64,000 bases of DNA from Oculatellaceae cyanobacterium bins.114 (GCA_033764315.1 JANRJA010000092.1:1-64000); one strand, 5' to 3'. Shown: positions 3,541 to 63,310, numbered from the stretch's first letter. Numbers and translations: made by a program. Notes: generated from the sequence alone by a model not told the origin.

Positions 3541-3556
3541 CGCTATGGAGATCCAT

Positions 3557-4960: not shown

Positions 4961-4973
4961 AATCCTCAAATCG

Positions 4974-17010: not shown

Positions 17011-17364
17011 ATGCATCAAAGTCAACTGGCGGGTCTGATCATTGACTGCCAAACCGATGACCTGGATCAAGCGGCTGAATTTTGGAGTCAAGCCCTTGGT
17101 CTTACATTGAAACCTTCAATAGACCCCGCAGAAGATCAGTATCGAGCCTTGGCAACAGAACCCAACAAACCCTATATCGAAGTGCAAAAGGTCGAGCATC
17201 CCAGTCGAGTGCACATCGACATCGAAACCAATGATGTGGAGGCAGAGGTGCAGCGACTAGAGGGATTGGGTGCCACTCGTGTGACACACGTGCGAACTTG
17301 GTGGGTGATGGAGGCTCCGACAGGACATCGGTTCTGCGTGGTGCCGATGAAAGCTGATTTGTAG
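17011..17364 (+). CDS. VOC/glyoxalase family protein
   Basis: IIDC, FWSQALG, RVHIDI, LGAT, APTGHRFCV. Confidence 0.85.
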   Translation: MHQSQLAGLIIDCQTDDLDQAAEFWSQALGLTLKPSIDPAEDQYRALATEPNKPYIEVQKVEHPSRVHIDIETNDVEAEVQRLEGLGATRVTHVRTWWVMEAPTGHRFCVVPMKADL

Positions 17365-17395
17365 AACCTACCCTTTTTCGCTTGCGATCGCTCCG

Positions 17396-18154
17396 TCACC
17401 CATCAGACGGATTGTCAAGATGTAATTGGTCTTGCTCCCATAAAAGGGGATTGTTTTGAATGTATTGCCGAATGAATTTCAAGGCTTTTTCATCCCGAAT
17501 GATGCGATCGTAGTAGTCGCGTTGCCACAAGGGAACCCCCCTGATCTGACGCATTTGATTAATCCGTCGTGTTGTAATCGATTTGAAATTGAGAACGATC
17601 GCACCTATTGATCCTTTTGTTAACCGGGGTGGTAGGGGTGCGGCATTCGGCAATTTGTCTTTGAGTTTGTGCGATCGCCCTTGCCCGAATGCCACACCCG
17701 GATTGGGCGATCGCTTGGGTTGGGGTGCGGCATTCGGCAATTTGTCTTTGAGTTTGTGCGATCGCCCTTGTCCGAATGCCACACCCGAATTGGGCGATCG
17801 GTTGGGTTGGGGTGTGGCATTGGAATTTAGGTTTTCGGTGAGGGTTGATGAACTGTGATCCAATGCCGCACCCCTACAGGGTGGTTCGGTTATGACCAAA
17901 ATGCCGTGAAGATGGTTGGGCATGACCACAAACATGTCTAATTTAAGGTTTGGAAAATGAGATGGTAATCGTTGCCAATGGGCATCCACTAATTTCCCAA
18001 ATTCGTTCAATTGCATCTCACCGTTGACAATTTCCCCAAACAAACATTCTCGTTGATGCACACAAAGGGTAATGAAATAGGCTCCGGGCGATGTGTAATC
18101 GTGTCCCTTTAACCGAATCGATCGCCTGTGATGTTTATCTGGGTTATATTTCAC
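17396..18154 (-). mobile_element. REP-associated tyrosine transposase (RAYT, Y1 HUH)
   Basis: RRSIRLKGHDY, YFIT, VVMPNHLHGI (HUH), WQRDYYDRIIR, YIQNNP. Confidence 0.9.
17632..17877. repeat. In-frame REP array inside the RAYT gene
   Basis: Perfect 16-bp IRs GTAGGGGTGCGGCATT/AATGCCGCACCCCTAC enclosing 87-bp tandem units. Confidence 0.9.
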
Positions 18155-18236
18155 GAAATTCTACCAACGCTTTTAATTTGTAGAATTCCCCGATCACACT
18201 GTTTCTCACATTGATGATGTTTGCAAGAACGGTTTT

Positions 18237-18278
18237 GTAGGGGCGGTTTTGTAAGGGCGGTTCGCGAACCGCCCCTAC
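18237..18278. repeat. GTAG-type REP hairpin upstream of RAYT
   Basis: GTAAGGGCGGTTCGCGAACCGCCCCTAC palindrome. Confidence 0.8.
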
Positions 18279-18348
18279 GGGGTTCCACACCCGATCGCCC
18301 CTCACCTCCACCTCCCCGGTTGCTCCAAGCGACCGGGGAGGTAAACCC

Positions 18349-37700: not shown

Positions 37701-37837
37701 ACTCTTACAACCGCGTCACCACTACTGCGATCGTGTTGTTGGCACTCTTAATCATTGCAGCTGTATTTTTGCTCTCTAGGCAACAGCCTAAAGCTACAAA
37801 ACACAAATTGAGTAGTGTTGAGGTTAAACCCCTTTAA
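34754..37837 (+). CDS. Triple-TIR protein with TM - Cache-like periplasmic domain - TM
   Basis: Three F(I/L)SY...SxYCxxE TIR units; TM ~aa650-672; RPWY/WTDVY Cache motifs; second TM near C-terminus. Confidence 0.85.
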   Translation: MQGFQDAFISYGRADSKAFAAKLHHRLVERGLTIWFDFDDIPLGVDYQKQIDDGINRADNFIFIISPHAVNSPYCRLEIELALKWNKRIIPLMHVGQIDRHIWQERNPNGTDADWENYQAQGLHSCFTNMHPKIAKINWVYFREDQDDFDQSLAGLLDIFDRHQDYVHQHTLFLVKALEWEENQRRSQYLLVGEERQQAETWLKKRFTDSQPPCVPTELHCEFITESIKNGENLMTQVFLSYATEDRNVAQKIRSSLLREAFTVWINTTDIQTGVDFENAIKQGIEEADNIVYLLSTNSLQSHYCQLEIDYALSLNKRIVPILVSAIDTQELPAALRNLQYIDLTDNILETDYQQDENQLLRVLRQDATYYQEHKVLLTKALKWERYNYNPTFLLRGYNLRHAEAWLKLALQHPRSPTTSIQEKFIAESQRQPPGVVVDVFISYSRADSGFGRQLNEALQMQGKNTWFDQESIASGSDFQQEIYRGIETANHFLFVLSPSSINSPYCADEVEYAAKLNKRVVTVLHRPINPANLHPELAKVQWLDFNQRDGDFSSNFKDLLRILDTDSNHLKAHTWLLVRAIEWDNKGRSDSLLLRGDDLEEAEQWLTQSQTKQPEPTELHQNYIRKSREVEAANQRLAQAGARAQQMVRVGWVVLSATVVVGATVWVGARLVAQKMVDSAVNLWLKSTVPAISREIGTLFSQVGSTQQIIREAFTDKLIDINNQNELEVFYITLAKAHPSLNWIQFGFPNGNYFGLQHTQEGNINIINRVYDPQTQQATRTIESYQQVNDSTLKLVDTLSTPEDYYAPQRPWYRGAVGNPGRQTWTDVYMFASTQTPGIDSSITVQQHDQLLGVISIAIELRQLSMLLERLQEGQPGALFIITPKGELIASSDLRDLGFTSTERDVPDLVTLDEVKNPLAKFASQVFRAHHTPLEEIKTQQTFEYRDPDSEIKYRIAINPIHHLDWNLVVVMPESVLTEEFDSYNRVTTTAIVLLALLIIAAVFLLSRQQPKATKHKLSSVEVKPL

Positions 37838-43239: not shown

Positions 43240-43297
43240 ATTTAGCAATGCCGTGAGGCTCCGTTACACTCAAAGGGTTGCCTCTCAAAAATGCATT

Positions 43298-44845
43298 ATG
43301 CCATCTTCTATTCAGCAGGAACCTGCACTCCAACCCCTAGATGAATACAATCAAACCCTCATGTCTCATGTTCATCCGCCTGATTGGGTTAACCCCAGTC
43401 CAGCGAGTTGTTATGATCTGGTCGTGATTGGGGCTGGCACAGCAGGATTGGTAGTTGCGGCTGGCGCAGCGGGATTGGGGCTAGGTCTCAAAGTTGCCCT
43501 GATTGAAAAAAGCCTGATGGGTGGCGATTGCCTCAATGTTGGTTGTGTGCCTTCTAAGGCTGTCATTCGTTCGTCGCGAGTTGTGGCTGAGATGCGAGAT
43601 GCAGCGCCATTTGGCATCCACCCGCCCGATGCGATCGCCATCGATTTTGCAGCTGTGATGCAGCGGATGCGGCGCATCCGTGCTGAGATTAGCCCCCACG
43701 ACTCCGCAGAACGGTTTCGCCAATTGGGGATCGATGTGTTTTTAGGACATGCCCAGTTTGTCAGCAAAGAGGCGATCGCGGTTGGTGAGAGTCAGTTGCG
43801 CTTTAAAAAAGCCGTGATTGCAACAGGGGCTCGTGCGACTCAACCCTCCATTCCAGGTTTGACAGAAGCCGGATATTTGACTAATGAAACCGTTTTTTCG
43901 CTCACCGAACGCCCCAAACGGTTTGCCGTAATTGGCGGAGGGCCTATCGGCTGTGAATTGGCTCAGGCATTTCAACGACTGGGTAGTGAGGTGACACTGT
44001 TTCACAAGCATGGGCATGTGCTCGATCGCGAAGAGGCTGAAGCTGCTGATATTATTCAACAGCAATTGATCCGAGAAAAGCTGCAATTGGTGCTCAACAG
44101 CACGCTAGAAAAAGTGGAAAAAACTGATGCAGGAAAGGTGATCCACTACCAACAACAGGGGGTTGCTAAAACCATCATTGTGGACGAGATTTTGGTGGGG
44201 GCAGGGCGATCGCCCAATGTAGAAGGGTTAAATCTAGAAACCGTGGCCGTTCAATACGATGCCAAACAAGGAGTGATTGTAAATGACTACCTCCAAACTA
44301 CAAATCCTCGCATTTATGCGGCTGGAGATATTTGCATGAACTGGAAATTTACTCACGCTGCTGATGCTGCTGCTCGCATCGTGATTAAAAATACCCTGTT
44401 TTCTCCCTTTGGTTTAGGACGTAGTAAACTCAGCAGTTTGGTTATGCCCTGGGTGACTTACACAGACCCAGAAGTCGCTCACGTTGGGCTATATGAGCAA
44501 GAAGCACAGGCCAAGGGATTAGACACAACCACGATCACTATTCCTTTTTCATCGGTCGATCGAGCCTTGGCAGATGGCGAACCGGAAGGCTTTGTCAAAA
44601 TTGTGCATCAACGCGGATCTGACAAAATTTTGGGCGCAACTATCGTGGCACGTCATGCTGGAGAAATGATTAGTGAAATCACATTGGCGATCGCCACTAA
44701 ACAAGGACTCAGTGCTCTTTCGGGGGTGATTCACCCCTATCCCACTCAGGCAGAAGCCATCAAAAAAGCAGCCGATGCCTACCGACGAACGTTGCTCACT
44801 CCTCGCACTCAATCGTTGTTAAAGATTTTGACTAAGTTGAGTTAG
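43298..44845 (+). CDS. Mercuric-reductase-like pyridine nucleotide-disulfide oxidoreductase
   Basis: GAGTAG, GGDCLNVGCVPSK, GGGPIGCE, HPYPT; lacks the C-terminal Cys pair of true MerA. Confidence 0.85.
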   Translation: MPSSIQQEPALQPLDEYNQTLMSHVHPPDWVNPSPASCYDLVVIGAGTAGLVVAAGAAGLGLGLKVALIEKSLMGGDCLNVGCVPSKAVIRSSRVVAEMRDAAPFGIHPPDAIAIDFAAVMQRMRRIRAEISPHDSAERFRQLGIDVFLGHAQFVSKEAIAVGESQLRFKKAVIATGARATQPSIPGLTEAGYLTNETVFSLTERPKRFAVIGGGPIGCELAQAFQRLGSEVTLFHKHGHVLDREEAEAADIIQQQLIREKLQLVLNSTLEKVEKTDAGKVIHYQQQGVAKTIIVDEILVGAGRSPNVEGLNLETVAVQYDAKQGVIVNDYLQTTNPRIYAAGDICMNWKFTHAADAAARIVIKNTLFSPFGLGRSKLSSLVMPWVTYTDPEVAHVGLYEQEAQAKGLDTTTITIPFSSVDRALADGEPEGFVKIVHQRGSDKILGATIVARHAGEMISEITLAIATKQGLSALSGVIHPYPTQAEAIKKAADAYRRTLLTPRTQSLLKILTKLS

Positions 44846-46158: not shown

Positions 46159-46325
46159 TAACCTGAGTTCGGGATAAGGATTTTGGCGGTTGAAACCGCG
46201 GTTATACGAGCAGAACCAACCTGCCTCTGTTCAGTAAACCTTTAACTTTGCCAGTCCGCGAAGGCGGACTTCGCTCTGGTAGCCGCGAATTTATTCGCTA
46301 GGCTGCTTTAACCTAACTAACGTTA
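46159..46325. repeat. Host dispersed repeat with TAACCTGAGTTCGG...CCTAACTAACGTTA imperfect terminal IRs
   Basis: Imperfect IRs; internal GTCCGCGAAGGCGGAC hairpin resembling the ~10905 and ~45090 copies. Confidence 0.7.
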
Positions 46326-46394
46326 GGTACTGTAGATTTTGATATGGGCAGTACTGGACTCGAACCAGTGACATCCTGCTTGTAAGGCAGGCGC
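46302..46394 (-). repeat. att direct repeat (displaced tRNA-Val 3' part plus 43-bp flank)
   Basis: 90/93 identical to 63195-63287. Confidence 0.95.
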
Positions 46395-46485
46395 ATCCCT
46401 ATTCTAAAAGGCTCTGGAGTGCCTATAAAAGCGTATTCCATCCTGTAGGGGTCTATGCTCTGGACTAAACTCTGGACTGGTTACG

Positions 46486-47112
46486 ATGGCTTGTCTGACC
46501 CCTGATCCAACAGACAGGACGATGAAGAAAATAAGAGTCAAAGTCAGTATGACCCCAGAAATTAAAAGGGCACTAGAGGAAGTTTCGGATTATTTAGGAT
46601 TACCTTTGTCCCAACTGCTGTTAGACTCTGCAATTGATCGTTGGCTACACAAACGCCCCCCTATCACTAAAGATCTAGGGCTATTATGCGATCGGCTTAG
46701 GTCGCTAGAGTCAATCCTAAATAAGCTAGACCAGCCCCAAACCTCTAAACCTCAACCCATCTGCAAGCCTAAGAGATCCGCTCTAGACCCCCTCAACCCT
46801 GTACTGCCTAATCAGTCTCTCTCTGCGCTCACAACGATTGACCAAGCCCTTACAAATGGCAAGCCTTTACACATTGACAACCTTGTGAGCAGGTTTCGAG
46901 GTGACAAGGTCATGAAAGCTCGGTTAAGTCAGTTGGGTGGAAGGGATGGAAAGCTGTTTGAGGGCAGTCTAAGCCACGCCCAAAAGGTTGAGGAGGTTAC
47001 AGTCCGACTAGACCCAGAAGGGTTGTCTTGGATGCCAGTGGACAAAGATCGGCTTTACTGGAAACAGATGATGGCTAACGAGTTTTGTAAGGCTGTATTA
47101 ACTAAATCCTAA
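46486..47112 (+). CDS. Hypothetical protein, possible N-terminal ribbon-helix-helix
   Basis: RVKVSMTPEIKRALEEVSDYLGLPLSQLL pattern. Confidence 0.55.
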   Translation: MACLTPDPTDRTMKKIRVKVSMTPEIKRALEEVSDYLGLPLSQLLLDSAIDRWLHKRPPITKDLGLLCDRLRSLESILNKLDQPQTSKPQPICKPKRSALDPLNPVLPNQSLSALTTIDQALTNGKPLHIDNLVSRFRGDKVMKARLSQLGGRDGKLFEGSLSHAQKVEEVTVRLDPEGLSWMPVDKDRLYWKQMMANEFCKAVLTKS

Positions 47113-49520: not shown

Positions 49521-49634
49521 TCCCGGTATACCGGGAATGACAAGAGTTTTTATATTAGTATTTCCCGGTATACCGGGAAACTTGCATAAACAGAACTCAT
49601 TAATTGAATTACTGTAATCCCTGGTATACCGGGA
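49521..49634. promoter_or_regulatory. Three palindromic operator-like sites TCCCGGTATACCGGGA in a divergent promoter
   Basis: Copies at 49521-49536, 49563-49578 and 49619-49634 (2 mismatches); TATAAT next to the third. Confidence 0.8.
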
Positions 49635-50243: not shown

Positions 50244-51491
50244 TCACTTGCAACTTGAACCATCAAACCCTTTGAAGTCGAGGTAATTTATGGGATTCTC
50301 AGGCGTTCCATTGCGGTGAATTTCCAGGTGGAGGTGTGAGCCTGTTGAGAGTCCAGTAGTTCCCATTAGGGCGATAACTTGACCCTGAGAAACGCGATCG
50401 CCCTGCTTCACCATTAGTTGCTGACTGTGGGCGTAAAGGCTTTCCAGTCCATCACCGTGGTCAATCACAACCTTATACCCAAAACCATCACCAGCATCAC
50501 CAGCCGTCACCACAGTGCCAGATGCGATCGCCCTGATTGGGGTTCCTGTTGCTCCTGATAGGTCAATCCCTAAATGAGGTCTTACCACCTTAAGAACCGG
50601 ATGCAAGCGATCAGGGTCAAAGCAGGATGAAACAGTAGCCTCGTTGGGTGAGAGTGGTAGAGCAAGCGTGGTAGTCGTTGCACCTCTGGCAGAGAGAACA
50701 GAGGCGATCGCCTTCATCCGTCTGCTCTGGTCGTGCTCAATCGTCACACCTACAGCAGCAAGACCAGGGGCATCGCCTTCAAAACTTGCGATTCTGGCAC
50801 ATAGGATTAAGTCATCCCCAACCTTGCCTGAGTCTTGGCATCGCTTAAGGTACTCAGCAAAGCTTGCTCCGGCACGTGGGCTTTGATTGGTTAAGTCTGC
50901 CAAGTTGAGAATAGTGGCTGTATCGGGTGTGATGCCTAACTGCTCCAACTCCAACAACTCAGGCTCAATTTGGCTTTTGAGTCGTCGGATCTGCACCTTA
51001 TCGGCTTCCTGTGGTGAGGATGCACCATGAATGTAACTGAACGTCCCCAGGTTTAGATAACCGCTGTCATAGTGCCCATTAAATGCGGATGTAGTCCCTC
51101 CATCAGCGGTTCTCGTTCCTTCTGAAACACCAATGGCGATCGCTGCTAGGGAATCAGAGCCACCATCAAAGTGAGACTCCCATGAAACATTCTCAGTCGT
51201 GGCACCATCGCAAATCTCAAAGGGCATAGCCGCTCTACCCCAAGCAGGCAGGAGAGAGCAGCTATTATTCACGATCCAATCGAGTGAGGCTACTGTGAAA
51301 CAAGTAGTCGCACAGACAAAGCAAAGGATCGCATCATTCCACAAAGCCTGCCAGGTCACAGCATCTTCTACAGCGCCGACCTGCTTGCTGATCCGCTTGT
51401 TGGACTTGGCGATCGCTCCCTGTTGCCGTTCGATTCGTTCGAGTCGGTCTGAGATGGTGTTGAGTTGTTTGGCAATGTCGGTGGATTCCAT
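50244..51491 (-). CDS. Membrane-anchored M23 peptidase with central lysozyme-like domain
   Basis: HLGID, YAH, STGSHLHLEI (M23 HxxxD/HxH); N-terminal coiled coil + TM; central SEGT...NLGTFSY. Confidence 0.85.
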   Translation of the reverse strand: MESTDIAKQLNTISDRLERIERQQGAIAKSNKRISKQVGAVEDAVTWQALWNDAILCFVCATTCFTVASLDWIVNNSCSLLPAWGRAAMPFEICDGATTENVSWESHFDGGSDSLAAIAIGVSEGTRTADGGTTSAFNGHYDSGYLNLGTFSYIHGASSPQEADKVQIRRLKSQIEPELLELEQLGITPDTATILNLADLTNQSPRAGASFAEYLKRCQDSGKVGDDLILCARIASFEGDAPGLAAVGVTIEHDQSRRMKAIASVLSARGATTTTLALPLSPNEATVSSCFDPDRLHPVLKVVRPHLGIDLSGATGTPIRAIASGTVVTAGDAGDGFGYKVVIDHGDGLESLYAHSQQLMVKQGDRVSQGQVIALMGTTGLSTGSHLHLEIHRNGTPENPINYLDFKGFDGSSCK

Positions 51492-51583
51492 CGTTCTACC
51501 TGATCGGGTAATGCTACGCGAATGACAACGAAAACAGTCAGCCCTAAGAGGGTCAATCTCAAGCTGTTAATCAATGCCGTCAT
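51368..51583 (-). CDS. Small single-TM protein
   Basis: N-terminal TM and Ser-rich tail; ATGA-coupled to upstream gene; overlaps the M23 start. Confidence 0.45.
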   Translation of the reverse strand: MTALINSLRLTLLGLTVFVVIRVALPDQVERWNPPTLPNNSTPSQTDSNESNGNRERSPSPTSGSASRSAL

Positions 51584-51798
51584 AGGTCATTCCCTCCCTG
51601 ATCAGAAGGCGTCGGATCTGCATCCTGACGTGTTTCTGGCGATTCCCATGAAGCAGGCTGACGCGTGATAATCTCTTGCACAGTTCCAACAACGTTCAGC
51701 ACAATCCCGTTAATGTTGATAGAGCCATCAGCTAGACACCGCAATAGAACAGGGATACCGACGATTACAATCGCGATCGCACCGATTAGATTTTTCAT
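51580..51798 (-). CDS. Small membrane protein
   Basis: N-terminal hydrophobic helix; GGAG upstream. Confidence 0.6.
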   Translation of the reverse strand: MKNLIGAIAIVIVGIPVLLRCLADGSININGIVLNVVGTVQEIITRQPASWESPETRQDADPTPSDQGGNDL

Positions 51799-51856
51799 TT
51801 TTTGAGTTCTCCAGAGTCAGTTTCAGTAACCAAAAATTGCCGCAAAAAGTCGTCGC

Positions 51857-53302
51857 CTAAGCCGTCTCAGGGTAGACAAAAGGGTTTTCAAACGATTCTT
51901 CAAACCCAGTCGTATCAGTTGCCGTAGCCATTCCCTCTGTCTCCCCTCGTCTCCCATCGCCCAATTTCACCGAATTTTCAGGGTTAGGAACCCCTGATCC
52001 AAGGGCTTCAATTTTTGACTTGAACAACAGGTATTTTTGGTTAGTAGCCTTCATCTCTTTTCGGCTTTGACCTGCCACTGTTACCCAAAACTCAGTAATG
52101 GCGATCGCCTGTTTCCCCTCGCTGACACGCTCCAACATCCGCTTGAGAATCTTGGCTTCAAGTTCAGACGTCCAGAGTTGGTTAAACCACTCCTGATCGG
52201 GATCTGTAACCGCTTCATCTGCCTCATCAACAAACTCAACTTGTTCAATATGGAGGGCTGGCAGTGCCTTGACTGAAAGAGCCTTATCAGTGAACACAAC
52301 GCACGGTCTAAGGTCTTTAACGACCTTGGGCACGTTGCCCATCTGCCTGATCACCTCATCCACTTGGTTTGTGTCGAGGTTGTCATAGTTGCGTTTGCTC
52401 TGGGATGCGCGATACAAGAGCAGCACTTCGAGCAGTTTGAGCAAGGCTCTAGGGATGCCAGAGCTGCCAACACTCAAGTCATGTAAGCCAAGTAGGAAGG
52501 TGACATTACCTTGCTTGATACCCCTGTTGCAGATGTTTCTAAGTGACTTAATGATTTCCTCTAAAGCCTTCTCCTCAAGAGAGTCTTTGAAGCTGATCCA
52601 CTCATCAACCAAAAGCAGGATGGGCTTAAACTGCGGTTTGGATCTGCCCTGTTTGATGGCATCGGCTGTTTTTCTGGCACGGGTCGCAACCTCACCAGCA
52701 ACCATATGGATCACAGCCTCGATGTCGGTCATCTCAATGAAAACGACCTTTCCCACTGGCAGGTTAAACCAGGTGTTTGGATCAGCGCCCTCGTGAGATG
52801 AACCGTAATCCGGGTCAGCGATGTAAATTTCCGCATCCGGATGCTGTTGCAGAAACCGTTGCACTCTCCACAAAAGCAGATGAGTCTTACCATCCTTGCT
52901 CTCACCGCAGACAATAGCCGATCGCTTCTCAAAGCCCTTAAACCAGTCAGTTTCTAGACCTTGTTTGGCGATGAACTGATCCGCTAACTTTTCACCCATT
53001 GGCATCTGTTTCAGGGCACTAATCACCAGGCGTTGCTTGCCTTGGGCGATCGCTTGACTGGCAGGTAAAGCAACCTCATTCAGATCACCGATCGCCTCTT
53101 GCAAATATTGGGATGAACCCCTGAAGACATCGACATATTCAAGTTTGCGACGGCTTCTAAGAGCCTCACCCACACCCCACATACTGAATCCGCCTAACCA
53201 GTGATAGGCACTGCTAGCGGTCACACACATCGTGAAGCTGGCAGCGAATAGACTACCAATCACCAGCTTTTCAGCGTTGCTGACACCGTTAGTAGTCTGC
53301 AT
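51857..53302 (-). CDS. Membrane-anchored FtsK/HerA-superfamily P-loop ATPase (putative DNA translocase or coupling protein)
   Basis: N-terminal TM; Walker A GESKDGKT, IYIADP, Walker B LLLVDE, RGIKQGNVTFLLG. Confidence 0.75.
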   Translation of the reverse strand: MQTTNGVSNAEKLVIGSLFAASFTMCVTASSAYHWLGGFSMWGVGEALRSRRKLEYVDVFRGSSQYLQEAIGDLNEVALPASQAIAQGKQRLVISALKQMPMGEKLADQFIAKQGLETDWFKGFEKRSAIVCGESKDGKTHLLLWRVQRFLQQHPDAEIYIADPDYGSSHEGADPNTWFNLPVGKVVFIEMTDIEAVIHMVAGEVATRARKTADAIKQGRSKPQFKPILLLVDEWISFKDSLEEKALEEIIKSLRNICNRGIKQGNVTFLLGLHDLSVGSSGIPRALLKLLEVLLLYRASQSKRNYDNLDTNQVDEVIRQMGNVPKVVKDLRPCVVFTDKALSVKALPALHIEQVEFVDEADEAVTDPDQEWFNQLWTSELEAKILKRMLERVSEGKQAIAITEFWVTVAGQSRKEMKATNQKYLLFKSKIEALGSGVPNPENSVKLGDGRRGETEGMATATDTTGFEESFENPFVYPETA

Positions 53303-53798
53303 TGCCTAAGACCTCCTCAAAAGCTTGGATGAGTGCTGATGGGTTAACCGTGGTTTGGTCGGATGCAACACCACCATTGACAACCCAGTGGTAGGCAACG
53401 AGACATGCTGACAGTTCAGCAGTCCGGTTGAGCAATTCACCATACTGGACGGCTTCACCCGTCACAGTGCCGTATTGCTGTCTTAGCGAGGCGATGTCAC
53501 CAGCAACATCGCGGCAAAGTTTGTCAGTCCATGCGATCGCGTCACCCGATTCTTGAGCCTTGGTGAATAGCTCGACGGCACGAGCATTAATCACCGATCG
53601 GATCGATTGCGAGTAGATATCTCTTGCCAGTTGTAGATAGGGTGAATTGGCTGAAACAGCGTCACCACTTGAAGGCGACGTTCCAGGGTTGCTTATGGCG
53701 ATTGCTGGCTCTTGCCTTGAGGGAGGTGCCGATAGACCCCTGACAATCAGGACAGTCACCAGGGCAACGACAGGAACAGAAATGAACTTGCTAATCAT
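53289..53798 (-). CDS. Single-TM/secreted protein
   Basis: N-terminal hydrophobic helix; overlaps both neighbours. Confidence 0.7.
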   Translation of the reverse strand: MISKFISVPVVALVTVLIVRGLSAPPSRQEPAIAISNPGTSPSSGDAVSANSPYLQLARDIYSQSIRSVINARAVELFTKAQESGDAIAWTDKLCRDVAGDIASLRQQYGTVTGEAVQYGELLNRTAELSACLVAYHWVVNGGVASDQTTVNPSALIQAFEEVLGNADY

Positions 53799-54156
53799 GG
53801 TGTTTCACCTCTTCCATGAGTCGTGACCACATTTCAAGCTCTTGCTCACTGAGGAGAGGTTGAGACAGCTTGCTACGGGCAATACGACGCAATGCAGCGC
53901 GATCGCTTTGGTCAGGTGCAATCACCACACTGAGAGCATAGAAAACCAATGTGGTAATGAGGATGGATGGCAGCAATGCCCACACATCACCTTGGAATCT
54001 TCCCCATTCCTCCAATGGCACCTCGTAATCAGCCGAAATTTTGTGGTAAAGGTCATTCAACCCGTACAGCATCCCCAGGATCACGCCTCCACTGGTGAGC
54101 GAGAATCCAAGGATGCTACCAGGCGTTAAGAGTCGATTGAATCGTTGATGGGTCAT
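53791..54156 (-). CDS. Two-TM membrane protein
   Basis: Two hydrophobic helices; ATGA overlap with upstream ORF. Confidence 0.7.
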   Translation of the reverse strand: MTHQRFNRLLTPGSILGFSLTSGGVILGMLYGLNDLYHKISADYEVPLEEWGRFQGDVWALLPSILITTLVFYALSVVIAPDQSDRAALRRIARSKLSQPLLSEQELEMWSRLMEEVKHHD

Positions 54157-54362
54157 GGCTTCATGCCTCCTTTGGTGGGCACAATTAGCCCACAAGCTTT
54201 AAGAGTCCTGATGGCAGTGGCGATCGCTGTCTTCGGTCTGTCAGTGAACTGCTGGATGCGTTCAGGTGTGGCTACTGCATCACAGGCATTAATCGCGGCA
54301 ATCGCACCCCAAACGTCTGTCTCTGCGTCCGTGAACGGTCGGATTTGATAGGCAGTTGGCAT
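54153..54362 (-). CDS. Small hypothetical protein (possible winged helix)
   Basis: 69 aa with GGAGG RBS; IRTLKACGLI. Confidence 0.55.
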   Translation of the reverse strand: MPTAYQIRPFTDAETDVWGAIAAINACDAVATPERIQQFTDRPKTAIATAIRTLKACGLIVPTKGGMKP

Positions 54363-54375
54363 TGTTCAACCCTCC

Positions 54376-54561
54376 TCAAACCAGAGCTAAGAAGTGAACG
54401 CAGAGATTCACCAGGTGTTGTTGTCCCTGGTTTGGTGCAATGCCAAAAATCCGCCATCGAGCGAGAGCAATGGCAGCGATCGCGGCTGCATCGATGGGGA
54501 TTCCTACAGAAGTAAAGCTTTGAAAGATTTCTCGTCGAAGTTGTTTGAAATCGGCATTCAT
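54376..54561 (-). CDS. Small hypothetical protein
   Basis: 61 aa with GGAG RBS, in operon. Confidence 0.5.
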   Translation of the reverse strand: MNADFKQLRREIFQSFTSVGIPIDAAAIAAIALARWRIFGIAPNQGQQHLVNLCVHFLALV

Positions 54562-54640
54562 AATGGTCGTATCTCCATTTTTGAAAGGGTGGGGATGGGC
54601 TACTGCTGAACTTGTCGAGGGTCACAGCAGTAGCTTTCGA

Positions 54641-54919
54641 TTACGCTGCATCGGATTGAAACGAGCGAATCCACTGCAAGATGCGATCGCGGTTGTTGTC
54701 GGTAATCTGCTCATCACCTTTGATAAGGTCTGCACAGCTTGCGATTCGATAGAGGCAGTCATCAGCGTCGTATTTGCCGCTGTTGAGGCGTTGAATCTGG
54801 GTTGTGATGTAGTCGCGATCGGAGCCTGAAAGACTTGTCAGGAGGTTTGGCGATACTTGAGCAGGTTTTAAGGTTGGATCGTGCTCCATTAGCCATTTAC
54901 GAAAGCTTTTGAGAATCAT
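54641..54919 (-). CDS. Small hypothetical protein
   Basis: 92 aa with AGGAG RBS, in operon. Confidence 0.6.
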   Translation of the reverse strand: MILKSFRKWLMEHDPTLKPAQVSPNLLTSLSGSDRDYITTQIQRLNSGKYDADDCLYRIASCADLIKGDEQITDNNRDRILQWIRSFQSDAA

Positions 54920-54963
54920 GTGTGGTGTCTCCTGTGGTGAATCCGTGGTGTTTTCGCTGCCGA

Positions 54964-55218
54964 TTAAAAACCCTGAATGGGATCTGAGAACTTGAAATCG
55001 GGTTCAACTTGTGACGATGACGATGGACTGTAATAGTTGGCAGGGTTGGGATCGGCGTATCGGGTCGGGTCTAATTCCCAGGTTTCAAGTAAATGGCGTC
55101 CATACCTGCTCACCATTAGGGCGATCGCTGCACTAGGTGATGTGGTTCGTGTTTTTGCTTGAATCTGGTCAACCACATTTCTGATGTCAGGATCTAGAAC
55201 AATGCGACTCTGACTCAT
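54964..55218 (-). CDS. Putative ParR-like adaptor
   Basis: 84 aa, ATGA-coupled to the actin gene; RHH-like N-terminus SRIVLDPDIRNVVDQI. Confidence 0.55.
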   Translation of the reverse strand: MSQSRIVLDPDIRNVVDQIQAKTRTTSPSAAIALMVSRYGRHLLETWELDPTRYADPNPANYYSPSSSSQVEPDFKFSDPIQGF

Positions 55219-56219
55219 AGACCCAACATCCCCACAATCGAGATAGTCTGAGGGTTTGGGGCAATCTTGAAACGTCCTTTGGTTGCTTCTTGCAATGGAG
55301 CGGCGATCGGGGCAGAGCCACCAATGATTAGCACTTCTCCTAAGTTGGCAAGCCACTGCCCCCAACGGGTTTTGATTTGACCTCTGATGTCTTCTAACCA
55401 CTGCTCACGTGCTGACTCAAAGGCGGCATGGAAGCAATAGCCAGTAGTGCCCAACATGAAATCTCCTGCCTCAATGCCATCCATAATCAGCGACAGGTCA
55501 GGACTGGCAGATAAGTCACGAGTGATCCGGGCGGCAATGCGTCGGGCTAAGTCAAACGTGCCAGGAAGGATCAGATCGGCTTCCCGCATGAGGGAGCCTG
55601 AGACGCTGTAAAGCCTGAGAATGCTTGTCCCCCCTCCCAGATCTAGAACTCCGTTGGTATTGCGTTTGCTGAGGAACAGACCTTGCTGAGTGGCGTAACG
55701 GTATGCTGCAACCGTTTCATCAACTGGCTCAACCTTGCGAACAGTGGCAATGATGGTTTGACCATTGCGGGTGAATTCGTGTGTACCTTCGATCGCTTTC
55801 AACGATTCAACATCGGCATCATTGCGAGAGTTGGGAAGGGCGATCGCCAGTCGTTCGACTCTCACGGCATCAGCCCCCGGCATTGGTTCCAATGCTGTCA
55901 GCACCAATAGACGAGCCAGTTTAACCTTGTCCTTCTCAAACACTGGACTGCCTGACAGGTCTTTAGCAACTTGACCCACGACAAAAGTAGAGCCTTCAAA
56001 CTCAATCACCATAGAGTTTTCATCAGGGCTGACATCTTCCCATGTGGGATCGATCGGCTTGATAAAACTGGGGATGGTATGAACGTTGCTGAGTGGGTCA
56101 ACCCATTGGATCGTGCGATTGCCACCGTCGAAGGCAACGAGGGGACGGATCAGATTCTTTGTATCCGTTAAAGGTTCGTTACTTGTCCGTCTTTCGGACT
56201 TAGCTAGAGCGGTACTCAT
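55215..56219 (-). CDS. ParM/StbA-like actin ATPase
   Basis: AFDGGNRTI (phosphate-1), LDLGGGTS (phosphate-2), IIGGSA (adenosine). Confidence 0.85.
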   Translation of the reverse strand: MSTALAKSERRTSNEPLTDTKNLIRPLVAFDGGNRTIQWVDPLSNVHTIPSFIKPIDPTWEDVSPDENSMVIEFEGSTFVVGQVAKDLSGSPVFEKDKVKLARLLVLTALEPMPGADAVRVERLAIALPNSRNDADVESLKAIEGTHEFTRNGQTIIATVRKVEPVDETVAAYRYATQQGLFLSKRNTNGVLDLGGGTSILRLYSVSGSLMREADLILPGTFDLARRIAARITRDLSASPDLSLIMDGIEAGDFMLGTTGYCFHAAFESAREQWLEDIRGQIKTRWGQWLANLGEVLIIGGSAPIAAPLQEATKGRFKIAPNPQTISIVGMLGL

Positions 56220-56418: not shown

Positions 56419-56664
56419 GTGAATCTTTTAGTGCCTACGCAGAAGCCCCGAATTGTCTCCTATTGCGACGAAGAAACCCATGAAATCCTCAAAGCAATTG
56501 CTGTAGAGGAGGATCGGAGCCTATCGAAATTGGTTGATATGCTATTGGCAGAGTTAGCGCAGCTAAAACCAGTTTTGGATGCTTATCGAAGTGATGCGGC
56601 ATGGAAGGGACTTCCCTATGCCCAGAAAATTAAAATTCTGATCGAAGAAACAACCAAGAAATAA
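56419..56664 (+). CDS. Ribbon-helix-helix regulator
   Basis: KPRIVSYCDEETHEILKAIAVEEDRSLSKLV. Confidence 0.75.
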   Translation: MNLLVPTQKPRIVSYCDEETHEILKAIAVEEDRSLSKLVDMLLAELAQLKPVLDAYRSDAAWKGLPYAQKIKILIEETTKK

Positions 56665-57220: not shown

Positions 57221-57679
57221 TTGACCACCCGTGTAGCAGAGAAAGTTTGGTCGCTAAGACTGCTCTACGGTATTCGCCCAAAGGAAAGGCACACCTTTAT
57301 CCATATGAATTGTAATGTTAAACCGCACAAACCCGCAAGTGTATCAAGTCAGTCTCATAGCAAGACTGTTAAGTCCAATTTTTCCTATCCTGTCTCTTTC
57401 AATTCTACAAAAAACCGTGTTAAAAGTCAGCATCGTCAGGTTAGTCTTTTCGACCTGATTGACACTGGTGAGGCTTCACCTAAATCAGAAGAGACTTGGG
57501 GAGATTTAGAGGAATCCCTTGAAACACTAGCCGCTATGCCGTTTCTTCAGCAGTTTTTTGGTGTCGTTCAAGCCGCAAAATTTCACAGGATTGAGTTCAA
57601 GGTTTTTCGGTCGCTTTTCTATGAGTGGCAGGAGTGTCGGAATAATTTTCAGCTAGAAAAAGGGAGTGCAGACCTATGA
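57221..57679 (+). CDS. Hypothetical protein upstream of rep
   Basis: ATGA-coupled to the DUF3854 ORF; start possibly 57305. Confidence 0.55.
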   Translation: MTTRVAEKVWSLRLLYGIRPKERHTFIHMNCNVKPHKPASVSSQSHSKTVKSNFSYPVSFNSTKNRVKSQHRQVSLFDLIDTGEASPKSEETWGDLEESLETLAAMPFLQQFFGVVQAAKFHRIEFKVFRSLFYEWQECRNNFQLEKGSADL

Positions 57680-58461
57680 ACGCTCCTTTTCTAGAAGAGT
57701 TTCAAAAAAGCGCAATTCCTGATCATTTGAGCCTTATCAACGTGCGGTGGATTAAAGGCGATGAAGCTATTCAAATTTTGGCAGAAGAGGCAATTTCCAA
57801 AGCTCAAAAGGTTGAAAGTTTTGTAACCAAATCTGCTTCCAAAATCCTCAACAAATATGCTTTTGCAGCAGCAGGTGGGTGGGTTGCCTATGGTTGCGAT
57901 GCTGACGGTAAGCTTTCAGGCACAGTGCCATTATTCAAGCCTCTAGAGCCTCGTAAAGAGCTGGAAAATGGGAGGCTGAAAACAATCAAATATGAAACCC
58001 CCCAGGGGTATCAGGCTACCCCTATCCTGCCGTGGGTTGACGAGTTGACAGCGGCAGCAATTTACAAATGGTACGGCGTGACCCCATTAGAGGGTGAAAC
58101 GTTCTGGCAGGTAGTTTGGCGTTGTGGACTGCCGATCGCCATCACTGAGGGACTGAAGAAGGCTCTATCACTAATCGCTCACGGTTTACCTGCGATCGCA
58201 CTGCGAGGTGTTGCCTGTTGGCATCTGAAAGGATCTGACAAGCTACATGAATCGATTTCTCACTTTGTCACGCCAGTGCGATCGATTTATATCGTCTTCG
58301 ATCAGGACGAAAAATTGAGGACTCAGCGCGATGTGAGAAACCAGATCCTTAAGTTGGGTTCATCCCTTGAACAGAAGGGATGCAAAGTATTTGCACCAAC
58401 TTGGGATAGAAAACTTGGCAAGGGAATTGATGACGTTTTATGGGGGTTGAGCAATGAATAA
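57676..58461 (+). CDS. DUF3854 (TOPRIM-like primase) part of a plasmid replication protein
   Basis: KYETP, ITEGLKKA, IVFDQD, KGIDD. Confidence 0.85.
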   Translation: MNAPFLEEFQKSAIPDHLSLINVRWIKGDEAIQILAEEAISKAQKVESFVTKSASKILNKYAFAAAGGWVAYGCDADGKLSGTVPLFKPLEPRKELENGRLKTIKYETPQGYQATPILPWVDELTAAAIYKWYGVTPLEGETFWQVVWRCGLPIAITEGLKKALSLIAHGLPAIALRGVACWHLKGSDKLHESISHFVTPVRSIYIVFDQDEKLRTQRDVRNQILKLGSSLEQKGCKVFAPTWDRKLGKGIDDVLWGLSNE

Positions 58462-60832
58462 ATCCCATAAGTGGCTCGACGATCTAATCAAGAATGCTCC
58501 AACCCTAAAGGATTACAAAAGACACGGACGCATTCAGGGAGCTTTAGAGGCGATCGCACGGTTAAATCAGCTTTCCTACCCAGTTGAGCGTGAAACGACA
58601 GGTGAGTATTTGCCACCATTGCCAGAGTTGACCATCGGTTCAATTCACGTTCTTACTGCTGGCATGAACGCGGGTAAGACAACCCGGATCGGCGTTGATT
58701 TGGTGCAATGGGCAAAGGTACGAGAATGGAACGTTTTAGTTATTTCTCCTCTCAACTCACTAGGACAACAAACCGCTAAAGACTGGGAACTATCCCACAT
58801 CCACGATTTTGGCTTATCTAAAGCCGAGCAGGAGGGACTATGGGCAAGTGTTAGCGCATCTCATGGCGTGGTGATGTGTCCTGATTCGTTGCATCGTATT
58901 CCCCAATGGTTTTGGTCACGTCCAACCCTACTAATTCTCGACGAAGCTAACCAAGTGATTGACCACATCACACAGGGTAATACACTGGGCACTCGATGGG
59001 CAGAAATCCTAGAACTGTTCAGTGCGATTGCCTGCCAATCAGCCCAAACTGGGGCAATCGTTTTGAGTGAAGCGGGTATTCCCGATCGAGCAGTGAAGTT
59101 TGTTCAGACCGTTGCAGACTGCGATCGGGTGCGAGTGTTCAAGCACATTAAGCAGGGTAAGCCTTGGAACTGCTCTATTTTCTCAGGTCAAGCCAGTGGG
59201 TTTAGAGCACGGCTGATTCAGTCAATTCAGCAGGGCGATCGCATCTTGATTGTGACCAGCTCTCAGCGCGAAGCGCGACGGCTGCAAAAGGTGATCAGCC
59301 AGAAATTACCCTCAATCAAGGCAGTGAGAGTTGATTCAGAAACCAATCAGCAGGGTGCTTTTAGTAGCTTCTTTGAAAACCCAGATCAGTGGTTAAAAGA
59401 CAATCAGCCAGACGTTTTAATCCTCTCTCCCAGTGCTAAGTCAGGCGTGAGCATTGAGGGCAATGTTCCCGTTGAGAGTGCTTACTTTTCATCGGTTTGG
59501 GGTTACTTTCCAACTCTGGCAACCGACACTCATATGCAACTTTTAGGACGATACCGCCCATCAGTACCACGCTACATCTTTGTACCTCCCTTCATCATGA
59601 CCGATGGGGACGAGTCACTATTTACCCCCAGAGCAGTGAAGCGACGACTAAACACCAATCTGAAGGGCTTTGCAGGTGTTTACGACTTGCACGAATTGAT
59701 TGAAGCTGACGATACCCGCGCCGAATCACTGGTGAGAATAGAGACAGCAGTTCTTGATTATCTGGCAGCGTCAAAGACTGTCAGTGGTGCTCAGAAGTCA
59801 ATTGCTCATGACGCATTAGCTAAGGAGCTGGAGACAGCAGGGCACACGGTCAAGTGTGTTCAATCTCAAAAGGATGCAACAACAGTTGAGTTGTGGAAGG
59901 ATATCCAGGAGGAGATCTGGCGTGAGGACGCAGCAGCGATCGCCAGTGCGGTAGTCGAGGATCGGCACACTCCAGAGTGGGCACACAGAACCCTAGAATC
60001 TCTCGAAGTCAGTTTAGAAACTCGCATTCTTGCCCAGAAGGTAATCTGGCGTGAGCAATTTCCTGGCATATTGTTTGATGACGCTGAGGAATGCTATCAG
60101 ACGCTTTGCAAAGACTACGGAGCTATGCGACGTGGTGTGACGTTGCAGGCTAAAGCAGAGAATCTAGAGGCAGCGAAGGAAGGCGATCGTGCCAGCGTTG
60201 AGGCAATTTTGAAGTCCCGGATCAGAGCAATTCACCACTTGCCTAAAAACTACTTCAAGGCATTGTTAATTGCCAAGACAGGTGTTTTGGAGCTACTGAA
60301 TGGTGAATGCTATTCCAATACCCACCCAAAAGCCCTACAGATTAGAAAAGCGGCACTGTACTGGGCTAACGAGATTAGCTACTGGTTGCGTTTACAAATC
60401 AAGCCAGACCAAACTCCAGTCGAAATCTGTAACAAGTTAATCAGGAAGATTGGATTAAATGGTGTTGCAGACAGCAGACCAGGGCAGCGAGGAACGAGTC
60501 GCGATCGTGTCTACGTAATTGAAGGGATGGAGAATCCTGTCAGGCAGCGGTTATTAGAAGCCCTTCGTCGTAAGACTTCTAGCTCCGTGTCCACCGTTTG
60601 TAATAAAGATAATTCCTCTATTCAAATCATGGACACCAGTATTCAAGGCGCTTCTACTCTCCCTCCAAAAACAGATTTTTCTCCCCAATCTTTAGTGAAA
60701 TGGGGTTCCAGAATTTGTGATTGGGTCATTTTGGAAATAGAAGGTGCGATCGCCAAAGTCAGACAGGTCAATACCCCTCTGTCTAGCGTTGTTTGGGATG
60801 CTCCCATTGATGAGTTGAGGTTAATTGCATGA
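58454..60832 (+). CDS. Helicase-like part of a cyanobacterial plasmid replication protein (CyRepA1-like)
   Basis: GMNAGKT, CPDSL, LILDEANQ, SPSAKSGVSI, QLLGRYR. Confidence 0.85.
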   Translation: MNKSHKWLDDLIKNAPTLKDYKRHGRIQGALEAIARLNQLSYPVERETTGEYLPPLPELTIGSIHVLTAGMNAGKTTRIGVDLVQWAKVREWNVLVISPLNSLGQQTAKDWELSHIHDFGLSKAEQEGLWASVSASHGVVMCPDSLHRIPQWFWSRPTLLILDEANQVIDHITQGNTLGTRWAEILELFSAIACQSAQTGAIVLSEAGIPDRAVKFVQTVADCDRVRVFKHIKQGKPWNCSIFSGQASGFRARLIQSIQQGDRILIVTSSQREARRLQKVISQKLPSIKAVRVDSETNQQGAFSSFFENPDQWLKDNQPDVLILSPSAKSGVSIEGNVPVESAYFSSVWGYFPTLATDTHMQLLGRYRPSVPRYIFVPPFIMTDGDESLFTPRAVKRRLNTNLKGFAGVYDLHELIEADDTRAESLVRIETAVLDYLAASKTVSGAQKSIAHDALAKELETAGHTVKCVQSQKDATTVELWKDIQEEIWREDAAAIASAVVEDRHTPEWAHRTLESLEVSLETRILAQKVIWREQFPGILFDDAEECYQTLCKDYGAMRRGVTLQAKAENLEAAKEGDRASVEAILKSRIRAIHHLPKNYFKALLIAKTGVLELLNGECYSNTHPKALQIRKAALYWANEISYWLRLQIKPDQTPVEICNKLIRKIGLNGVADSRPGQRGTSRDRVYVIEGMENPVRQRLLEALRRKTSSSVSTVCNKDNSSIQIMDTSIQGASTLPPKTDFSPQSLVKWGSRICDWVILEIEGAIAKVRQVNTPLSSVVWDAPIDELRLIA

Positions 60833-62370: not shown

Positions 62371-62904
62371 TTACAACATCCCGTCTATTCCAAAGTTATT
62401 GCTATTCAGATCTGTACTCTTGGTTTGTCCTTGTTGGACAGTAACAGGCGTCAGCCAGTATCTCTGTAGTTGATCGTCGCCAGAAGCCCAGTTAACACCA
62501 AACAAAAGATAGTCTCCCGGACTAATTCCTTCTATTGAGTAGTATCCATTTACACTGCTTTGCACTGGCGTTCCACAACTTTGCTTGGCAAAATCTTCCA
62601 TTTCGCTTACAGCAGATAAATGCCTCATTTCGTTCACACCTGGAACGTCTGAAATTTCAGAGGAGTTTCTATCTCGAATTTCTTTGAATTGCTGAAAAAG
62701 ATTTGACGGACAAGCAAACACGCTCATTCCTCTAATAAGTTCAGAACCTACGTCCGATGCAGAATTTAGATAAACGTAACCATCTAATTTGGCTTGAAGC
62801 TGAGGGCTTTCAGTCGTGGGAGCTGAAGCAGTCGGTAGAGGCTGACTAGTTCCACTGCATCCTGTGATAGCCGCAATGCAAAAAACCAAAGCAATTTTCT
62901 TCAT
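62371..62904 (-). CDS. Lipoprotein
   Basis: MKKIALVFCIAAITGC lipobox. Confidence 0.75.
   Translation of the reverse strand: MKKIALVFCIAAITGCSGTSQPLPTASAPTTESPQLQAKLDGYVYLNSASDVGSELIRGMSVFACPSNLFQQFKEIRDRNSSEISDVPGVNEMRHLSAVSEMEDFAKQSCGTPVQSSVNGYYSIEGISPGDYLLFGVNWASGDDQLQRYWLTPVTVQQGQTKSTDLNSNNFGIDGML

Positions 62905-63194: not shown

Positions 63195-63310
<116 letters not shown>

Follow-up and report, generated by a model that had tools for sequence, protein, structure and literature searches.

A ten-gene operon in a plasmid-like element

We analyzed a 64,000-nucleotide stretch of Oculatellaceae cyanobacterium bins.114 (GCA_033764315.1 JANRJA010000092.1:1-64000; the window hereafter), a piece of cyanobacterial chromosome holding a 16.9-kb plasmid-like element inserted at a tRNA-Val gene. 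Within the element, ten genes follow one another on the minus strand from position 56219 to position 50244 and encode, among other products, a ParM-like actin, a membrane-anchored P-loop ATPase and a membrane-anchored wall hydrolase, a set that we tentatively read as an envelope-crossing DNA pump. Genes overlap at six of the nine junctions (4, 4, 8, 14, 4, and 124 nucleotides, the three 4-nucleotide overlaps being ATGA), and a GGAG or GAGG motif lies upstream of eight of the ten starts, which bears out the co-oriented run with many overlapping junctions described in the first-pass annotation of this DNA. A scan for promoters and terminators returned fewer sites than in shuffled sequences. Since the ATPase has 21 relatives at 37 to 62% identity and five of its neighbors are conserved in order elsewhere, we take the operon genes, as judged from their sequences, to be real and not chance open reading frames (ORFs).

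The operon starts with the gene of the ParM-like actin, a protein of 334 amino acids recognized by Pfam and PHROGs (55215-56219; like all operon genes, on the minus strand). It is followed by an 84-amino-acid protein, by its position a candidate ParR-like adaptor (54964-55218), the ATG of which overlaps the parM stop codon (ATGA), and by a 92-amino-acid protein without assigned function or family match, encoded by an ORF with AGGAG upstream (54641-54919). Two overlapping ORFs are possible between 54363 and 54640, where the coding content is ambiguous. Next come a 69-amino-acid protein (54153-54362), possibly a winged-helix DNA binder on the basis of a sub-threshold TrmB match (E 0.055), whose stop codon overlaps the ATG of the following gene; a membrane protein with two hydrophobic, putatively transmembrane (TM) segments and 121 amino acids counted from the ATG at 54156 (53791-54156); and a 169-amino-acid protein with one N-terminal TM segment at residues 1 to 19 (53289-53798), whose gene overlaps the ATPase start by 14 nucleotides. 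The 481-amino-acid ATPase, membrane anchored and FtsK-like according to its Walker motifs, model and fold search (51857-53302), precedes two small proteins with one TM segment each, one of 72 amino acids (51580-51798; segment at residues 4 to 22) and one of 71 amino acids with a tail rich in Pro, Ser and Thr (51368-51583; segment at residues 3 to 21). The last gene encodes a 415-amino-acid M23 hydrolase (50244-51491) and shares the 124-nucleotide overlap with the gene of the 71-amino-acid protein. A similarly long overlap is seen in Leptolyngbya FACHB-8 (11694-11906 and 11786-13048), suggesting a conserved arrangement, possibly with coupled or frameshifted expression.

A repeat search placed the boundaries of the element at two 93-nucleotide direct repeats, to which no strand is assigned, at 46302-46394 on the left and 63195-63287 on the right; the copies are 97% identical, differing at 3 positions. 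The right repeat covers the 3' part of the tRNA-Val gene (63238-63310), while a weak tRNA-like match (46345-46413, 33.3 bits) lies at the left junction. The repeats thus duplicate the tRNA 3' end, as in integrative elements, in agreement with the attachment (att) sites recognized earlier. Among the 28 ORFs of the element, no family match in Pfam, NCBIfam or PHROGs was obtained for an integrase or recombinase, nor for a relaxase, VirB4, capsid, portal or terminase, and no tail family was found in Pfam or PHROGs; the lack of a relaxase, VirB-type channel, capsid, portal and terminase between the att sites, noted at first pass, therefore held. The element may be immobilized, may rely on an integrase encoded elsewhere or may have entered by recombination.

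The ParM assignment made in the first-pass annotation was confirmed by a match to Pfam ALP_N above the cutoff (4.4e-8; 33.9 bits versus 26.3) and to the partition protein family PHROG 691 (5.5e-19), and the protein is 28% identical to the annotated ParM/StbA of the Oscillatoria plasmid pOSCIL6304.02. The proposed adaptor fared less well: the 84-amino-acid protein occupies the same position after parM in two Oscillatoria plasmids and one further locus (L006, below), but it matched no family in Pfam, NCBIfam or PHROGs. Its cofolding with ParM scored 0.37, against 0.00 for the best control, with contacts agreeing by at least 64% between runs and a predicted local distance difference test (pLDDT) value of at least 64 for the partner, which weakly supports the pairing. 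On calibration, 51 of 78 solved complexes and 2 of 108 mismatched pairs attained the mark, and passing scores of up to 0.60 came from only 5 of the 78 solved complexes and from all 4 mismatches that passed. As ParM-ParR complexes have already been solved, the pass may reflect likeness to these structures. No parC-type repeat array was found upstream of parM. Both Oscillatoria plasmids carry a ParA-family gene besides the ParM at the head of the module. They thus have two systems for segregation, and that of ParM moves together with the ATPase module.

The ATPase and its predicted FtsK-type fold

The Walker A (GESKDGKT) and Walker B (LLLVDE) motifs of the ATPase lie at residues 133 and 229, and its hydrophobic segments are where they had been placed, so the description of a membrane-anchored P-loop ATPase stands. 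Its close relatives are named from Leptolyngbya and Thermoleptolyngbya, and the Gly and Lys of Walker A as well as the Asp and Glu of Walker B are invariant in all 21 of them and in 56 wider family members. A profile search of 1.84 billion representatives returned 242 members at E ≤ 0.001, including 45 at E ≤ 1e-30, and by a simple hydropathy rule a hydrophobic segment lies ahead of Walker A in 119 of 149 full-length members. Judged by these matches, the ATPase belongs to a family of at least 242 representatives that is unnamed in annotation. The window protein has no Pfam family, PF01580 giving no match at E ≤ 0.1. Among 104 distant relatives, four showed sub-threshold FtsK_SpoIIIE matches (best 22.5 bits versus a cutoff of 24) and four DUF87/HerA matches, one of them just above the cutoff; some others matched generic P-loop families and most none. 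Two distant relatives, ORF127 of the Planktothrix phage PaV-LD (1.7e-9) and an Oscillatoria plasmid ATPase (6.6e-8), matched PHROG 1358, "FtsK/SpoIIIE-like."

In an AlphaFold model of the ATPase (AlphaFold2; pLDDT 79.3), two N-terminal helices and a linker precede a RecA-like core (about residues 125 to 350), which is followed by a helical C-terminal domain at residues 366 to 440, the latter modeled at a pLDDT of about 87 to 92. A Foldseek search of the PDB with this model placed TcpA of the Clostridium perfringens plasmid pCW3 first (2.7e-6), followed by FtsK motors (2.4e-5) and EssC/EccC, over about 255 aligned columns. A DnaB-like helicase took rank 7 (5.3e-5, but with a root mean square deviation of 24), SIR2/HerA rank 24 and a viral packaging NTPase rank 45 (both 1e-4 to 1e-3), and no TrwB, VirD4 or VirB4 chain was among the matches listed. 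The structural neighbors of the ATPase in the Atlas are FtsK_SpoIIIE clusters. The model therefore supports an FtsK-type fold, that is, a RecA-like motor carrying Walker A and B, whereas the PF01580 cutoff is not reached; the FtsK/HerA-type assignment proposed at first pass thus stood at the level of structure and not at that of sequence profiles. We considered and dropped a membrane-virus packaging ATPase, as there are no capsid genes, packaging ATPases rank low and PaV-LD has its own terminase, and likewise an inovirus Zot-type ATPase, for which there was no Pfam match.

The hydrolase and the small membrane proteins

The hydrolase is built of an N-terminal cytoplasmic coiled coil, a TM segment at residues 55 to 73, a central domain at about residues 100 to 270 and an M23 domain (Peptidase_M23, PF01551, 1.7e-32; 111.9 bits versus a cutoff of 28.7). 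HLGID at residue 306 and HLH at residue 386 are intact, matching the M23 catalytic motifs HxxxD and HxH, and the TM-anchored M23 peptidase described earlier was thus corroborated. The M23 domain dominated a PDB search with the hydrolase model, SpoIIQ chains being among its matches, and the central domain was not picked out. The latter contains an invariant Glu124 in an AEGT-like motif and recurs in 11 other cyanobacterial proteins without a Pfam domain; its Atlas neighbors are Phage_lysozyme clusters, at template modeling (TM) scores of 0.43 to 0.49, which serve as a lead only. On the strength of these neighbors, all below 0.5, and of the invariant Glu, the central domain may have a lysozyme-like fold, and the hydrolase is probably two-headed.

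Each of the four small membrane proteins has one or two hydrophobic segments. The 72-amino-acid protein gave the only PHROG match among them, a weak one to phrog_9343 (function not assigned; E 0.0076).

Recurrence of the gene set on plasmids, contigs and phages

We compared eight contexts: the window, the plasmids pOSCIL6304.01 and pOSCIL6304.02 of Oscillatoria acuminata (L001 and L002), the loci L003 to L006 and phage PaV-LD. A genome scan with a narrow ATPase alignment gave four loci. In L003, from Leptolyngbya FACHB-8, homologues of the 2-TM and 1-TM proteins lie upstream of the ATPase and homologues of both small TM proteins and then the M23 hydrolase downstream, so that all six core genes are present in order. 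Five of the six are found in L005, where the same two genes upstream are joined by one small TM homologue downstream and then by an M23 plus Phage_lysozyme enzyme. L004 has both upstream homologues, its contig ending after the ATPase, and L006, which also ends there, has ParM and the 2-TM homologue, with an unmatched ORF at the 1-TM position (19% aligned identity, no BLAST match). The 2-TM homologues, encoded just ahead of the ATPase pair in L003 to L006, are 28 to 38% identical to the window protein; the 169-amino-acid protein has homologues at the same position in L003 (51% identity by BLAST, 49% in the alignment), L004 and L005, the 72-amino-acid protein after the ATPase in L003 and L005, and the 71-amino-acid protein in L003. 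On both Oscillatoria plasmids, ParM, two small genes and a 1-TM protein of 354 to 364 amino acids precede an ATPase of 478 or 481 amino acids, 24 to 25% identical to that of the window, and two small TM proteins and a TM-anchored M23 plus GH108 enzyme follow it.

Compared by sequence, a core of the 2-TM protein, the 1-TM protein, the ATPase, small TM proteins and an anchored M23 enzyme with or without a muramidase recurs across these loci, so that the synteny in cyanobacterial plasmids that was to be looked for according to the first pass was found. In all six contexts with downstream DNA a hydrolase follows the ATPase, as M23 alone, M23 plus Phage_lysozyme or M23 plus GH108. The actin, in contrast, was upheld as part of the module in only half of the cases: ParM stands ahead of the module in four of the eight contexts and is absent from L003, L004, L005 and PaV-LD. 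Replication genes (primase-helicase) adjoin the module in the window, and the same holds for L001 to L003, L005 and L006, five of the six remaining loci on plasmids or contigs. A relaxase was present in one context of eight, as a MOBP protein 30 kb from the module on pOSCIL6304.02, which is typed mobilizable, while pOSCIL6304.01 is typed non-mobilizable; VirB4 was found in none of the annotations and ORFs examined. Homologous elements that always carry a relaxase and a type IV secretion system or a capsid, named at first pass as a refutation of the pump, were thus not what we saw. The window element and the Oscillatoria plasmids have no virion genes; PaV-LD has a capsid gene. When plasmids were searched by tblastn with distant members, the Oscillatoria ATPase and the phage N1 ATPase, the result was only the two Oscillatoria plasmids, two weak matches on small plasmids of lactic acid bacteria, or nothing.

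In PaV-LD, the order is ORF129 (2 TM), ORF128 (1 TM), ORF127 (FtsK-like ATPase with an N-terminal anchor), ORF126 to ORF124 (small), ORF123 (TM-anchored M23) and ORF122 (GH108). ORF127 is 26% identical to the Oscillatoria ATPase over its full length (E 9e-47), and the M23 domain of ORF123 is 46% identical to that of the window. The phage is annotated with terminase, portal, capsid, tape-measure, integrase, ParB-like, anti-repressor and replication genes (initiator, DnaB-like helicase); having its own terminase, it does not use the ORF127 ATPase as its packaging motor. PaV-LD is called tail-less in the literature, and its annotation has tailed and possibly temperate or plasmid-like traits. A more distant ATPase branch is a 525-amino-acid protein, 23% identical, in seven phage records from Nostoc, Anabaena and Dolichospermum hosts (the N-1/A-1 group); it was the best BFVD fold match (5.8e-15), a Nodularia phage protein being listed as well, and no M23 gene lay beside it in the phage neighborhoods examined. 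A tblastn search of 50,697 phage records with the window ATPase gave no match in phages of unicellular hosts. The named hosts of the module are Leptolyngbya, Thermoleptolyngbya and Oscillatoria, and those of the phages Planktothrix, Nostoc, Anabaena and Dolichospermum; all of these are filamentous, as the suggested link to filamentous growth had implied.

A predicted DNA pump of filamentous cyanobacteria

We propose that the genes from 54156 to 50244 encode an envelope-crossing pump for double-stranded DNA (dsDNA), comparable to the TraB/Spd systems of Streptomyces and carried by mobile DNA of filamentous cyanobacteria. This predicted role is the best reading of the data, at somewhat less than an even chance, and leaves the earlier pump interpretation partly supported. 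A DNA machine that crosses the envelope fits best because a membrane-anchored FtsK-type motor on mobile DNA overlaps an upstream membrane-protein gene and has a tethered hydrolase encoded just downstream. The recurrence of the set on plasmids, an integrated plasmid-like element and a phage speaks for the same reading, and, as in a TraB/Spd-type system, one FtsK-like ATPase is the sole motor, with neither a relaxase nor VirB4 among the ORFs of the element.

In the proposed mechanism, a ring of the ATPase at the cytoplasmic membrane, probably at cell-cell septa, would pump the dsDNA of the element outward, as Streptomyces TraB, FtsK and SpoIIIE do, through a conduit that the 1-TM and 2-TM proteins would form or stabilize. 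The hydrolase, tethered by its own TM segment, would locally open the septal peptidoglycan. In a trichome the outer membrane stays out of the septum, so that only membrane, wall and membrane would be left to cross. ParMR, in the most speculative step, might drive copies of the element to the poles of the cell, and these coincide with the septa in a filament. The recipient could be the neighboring cell along the filament or a cell of another filament, and uptake might use the competence system of the recipient, as in Thermus transjugation. The steps from FtsK-type fold to DNA pumping, septal location and delivery by ParM are each inferred.

Transfer of dsDNA driven by an FtsK-like protein without a relaxase is so far known only from mycelial Actinobacteria, and Streptomyces TraB with its Spd partners (pSVH1, pIJ101 and pSG5) is among the closest parallels. 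As described in two articles (PMC4447253, PMC3548315), this system works without a relaxase, by a single membrane-associated FtsK-like ATPase that filamentous hosts carry on plasmids and integrated elements; it is accompanied by small membrane proteins of no known family, linked to peptidoglycan and has relatives on phages. Its pore-forming partners are toxic or holin-like in E. coli, and the spread protein SpdB2 is pore forming and gives T7 lysozyme access to the wall (PMC4447253). The window ATPase, likened to TraB by description, is shorter than TraB, for which the construct names in PMC4447253 give 772 residues, and shows no significant similarity to FtsK/TcpA profiles; the window module also has a dedicated anchored M23/muramidase enzyme, its host is a diderm cyanobacterium, and no clt-like site is known in its element. 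TraB, TcpA and FtsK are placed on one branch, TraB occurring only in Actinobacteria and TcpA only in Firmicutes, according to PMC3548315. TdtA of the Thermus thermophilus element ICEth1 (transjugation) is a membrane-bound hexameric ATPase of the FtsK/HerA family, encoded on a 14.9-kb element that is inserted at a tRNA gene and flanked by direct repeats, and pushes DNA out of a diderm donor into recipients that use natural competence (PMC5365140); it differs in being HerA-like rather than FtsK-like, the portion consulted mentions no hydrolase or small TM proteins, and it too is likened by description only.

TcpA of pCW3 (considered with TcpG and TcpI) is the best structural match and combines an N-terminal membrane anchor with an FtsK-like domain; the plasmid that carries it also encodes ParM and a wall hydrolase. 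In addition, pCW3 has the relaxase TcpM, further membrane proteins for conjugation and a large ATP-binding protein, none of which is present in the window element. ORF122 to ORF124 of PaV-LD correspond to the window module in their homologous TM-anchored M23 enzyme, GH108 muramidase and small membrane proteins directly downstream of a homologous ATPase, with the difference that the window element makes no virions. In Bacillus sporulation, the FtsK-family pump SpoIIIE moves DNA across the septum between sister cells, where the TM-anchored M23-fold protein SpoIIQ is present. SpoIIQ is catalytically degenerate, whereas the M23 motifs of the window enzyme are intact, and spoIIIE and spoIIQ are chromosomal genes outside a common operon that serve a developmental program, not mobile DNA.

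Several results weigh against a DNA pump. The ATPase gave nothing significant against the PDB by single sequence or profile (UvsX 0.025, EssC 0.63 to 0.76), and hhalign of the family alignment reached a non-significant probability of 13% with TcpA of pCW3 and 0.5% with the E. coli FtsK motor, both templates being single sequences. The Foldseek TM-scores were modest (0.33 by query, 0.44 by target), and RadA, RecA, KaiC, Rho and DnaB-type chains were also matched at 5e-5 to 1e-3. None of the four small membrane proteins matched a family in Pfam, NCBIfam or PADLOC, Spd families included, so that the Spd-like character implied for them at first pass found no backing, nor could homology be detected between the accessory membrane proteins and the proteins at equivalent positions in PaV-LD and the Oscillatoria plasmids. 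Delivery of DNA by ParM is a weak step because ParM occurs in only half of the contexts. The element, lacking an integrase, may be decaying. No cis transfer site was identified: the sole repeat array of the element, a palindrome at 49521-49634, does not occur in any of the 13 other loci. The gain from spreading within a trichome is doubtful, the cells of one trichome being clonal, and PaV-LD, with its terminase and portal, has no evident need of a DNA pump. Finally, overexpression of ORF123 and ORF124 of PaV-LD inhibited growth and damaged the envelopes of E. coli and Synechocystis, the TM segments being needed, according to PMC9096620.

The strongest rival explanation builds on this last result and regards the set as a phage-type wall-breaching or lysis cassette, in which the small TM proteins are holins, the anchored M23 enzyme (with or without muramidase) is the endolysin, and the ATPase and upstream membrane proteins are an accessory, or else serve a separate function linked to it. 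Captured from a phage, the cassette would serve plasmids either as a regulated "kil" function or to set DNA free by lysis. The authors of PMC9096620 assign ORF123 as the endopeptidase and ORF124 as the holin of the PaV-LD lysis module, and the article treats these two alone, with the ATPase unmentioned and "FtsK" occurring 0 times. The close relation of ORF123 to the window M23 domain, the presence of only ORF122 and ORF123 as named peptidoglycan hydrolases among 142 annotated PaV-LD features, the matches of the window M23 domain to many PHROG endolysin families and to a cyanophage ejection protein, and the small TM proteins beside a wall hydrolase all agree with lysis. Yet the element and the Oscillatoria plasmids, having no virion genes, package nothing that could be released, parM belongs to the operon of the cassette, linkage to the ATPase is seen in all six contexts with downstream DNA, and overexpression toxicity is not specific to lysis, as it is also seen for Streptomyces SpdB2 (PMC4447253). 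Lysis explains neither the ATPase nor why plasmids keep the set with parM in one operon, and we consider it unlikely, though worth serious attention. It is improbable, too, that the ATPase serves segregation, pulling element DNA out of the closing septum together with ParMR while the hydrolase remodels the septal wall. Such septal clearance would suit the FtsK-type fold and the parMR genes that share the operon in half of the contexts, and, as the Oscillatoria plasmids also have ParA, ParM may belong to the module and not to general partition; FtsK/SpoIIIE genes of Bacillus phages aid segregation of phage genomes into spores (PMC8597652). However, a bifunctional hydrolase and four membrane proteins are unexpected for clearance, and the contexts without ParM stand against it. 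The host, moreover, presumably has its own FtsK.

The match to TcpA, a type IV coupling protein, raises a further explanation, namely, that the ATPase passes single-stranded DNA bound by a relaxase on to a pilus or secretion system whose genes lie elsewhere, with the hydrolase assisting. The MOBP relaxase of pOSCIL6304.02 would suit it, as would a 208-amino-acid protein of the window element (46486-47112) with a weak, below-cutoff match to NikA-like/ribbon-helix-helix proteins (E 0.004), but no relaxase was found in that element, pOSCIL6304.01 is non-mobilizable, the relaxase of its sister plasmid is distant from the module, VirB4 is missing from every context seen and the module also occurs in a phage, so that we hold a coupling role to be distinctly improbable. 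A function unrelated to DNA, be it an EssC-like secretion ATPase that exports small proteins or the hydrolase, or a defense or exclusion system, is highly improbable. In its favor, EssC/EccC chains rank high in the fold search, NCBIfam gave a weak match to EssC (E 8e-4) and HerA-type ATPases occur in defense systems, as in the SIR2/HerA match. PADLOC, however, gave for the ATPase only a P-loop-level mad8 match without a scored stretch and matched none of the other 10 operon proteins, no defense system being found among the element and operon proteins; FHA domains and tandem ATPase domains are lacking, the hydrolase has a membrane anchor of its own, and the module travels with plasmid replication genes.

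We regard a broader proposal as possible but doubtful: filamentous cyanobacteria would own a counterpart of TraB/Spd, in which an FtsK-like pump, small membrane proteins and a two-headed hydrolase drive dsDNA through the septum, and plasmids, integrated elements and tailed phages (PaV-LD, and the N-1/A-1 group with its more distant ATPase) would spread along the filament by it, never having to exit the cell. For Anabaena filaments, "potential cell-to-cell spread" has been reported among phages belonging to the A-1(L)/N1 cluster, no gene being named in the part of the preprint available (bioRxiv 10.64898/2026.02.14.705889). We found no description of the module, or of any DNA pump between cyanobacterial cells, in the literature covered, which excluded subscription journals. 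If true, the proposal would mean that a diderm phylum conjugates without a relaxase and that phages can spread without virions. As a second, independent system in another multicellular lineage, it would show that septal DNA pumps are repeatedly selected for by filamentous growth. It would also explain how cyanobacterial plasmids without a relaxase or a type IV secretion system move, offer phages of filamentous hosts a cell-to-cell route and supply a small gene-delivery tool for cyanobacteria. The unannotated ATPase family gains a testable role and a name, and the "lysis module" of PaV-LD merits a re-reading in its full gene context.

Other features of the element and the window

The replication module of the element (57676-60832, plus strand) consists of a DUF3854/Toprim protein (Pfam DUF3854, 5.1e-32) and a CyRepA1-type helicase (NCBIfam CyRepA1, 1.2e-63; 215.9 bits versus a cutoff of 200). 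The CyRepA-type protein is split in the window, the ORFs of the DUF3854/Toprim part (57676-58461) and of the helicase (58454-60832) overlapping by 8 nucleotides, while its counterpart in L003 is a single protein of 1035 amino acids (2399-5506). In the same locus, at 14487-19977, the module adjoins Cas3 and a GSU0053-type Cas protein, resembling CRISPR-bearing cyanobacterial plasmids.

PHROGs indicated two candidate ribbon-helix-helix regulators in the element; one, divergent from the operon (56419-56664, plus strand), matched an Arc-like repressor (2.6e-5). The palindrome array at 49521-49634 comprises three copies of 14 to 16 bp with the core CCCGGTATACCGGG, against a chance expectation of 0.08 matches, and lies between two divergent small genes about 600 bp past the hydrolase stop codon; a role as operator, centromere or transfer site is conceivable. 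The remainder of the element is a set of small ORFs without assigned function. The last sizeable gene before the right repeat (62371-62904) encodes a 177-amino-acid protein without a family match that has a lipoprotein-type signal, with a Cys after a hydrophobic leader.

The host of the window is Leptolyngbyaceae-like by sequence comparison: a chromosomal oxidoreductase (43253-44845) is 85 to 86% identical to proteins of a Leptolyngbyaceae metagenome-assembled genome and of Oscillatoria sp. FACHB-1407, and 84% identical to Kovacikia and Leptothermofonsia proteins. Also outside the element, a 1027-amino-acid protein (34754-37837) carries three TIR domains followed by Cache/PDC sensor domains, an unusual sensor-TIR architecture, and its gene lies just upstream of that of a 1578-amino-acid multi-PAS histidine kinase.

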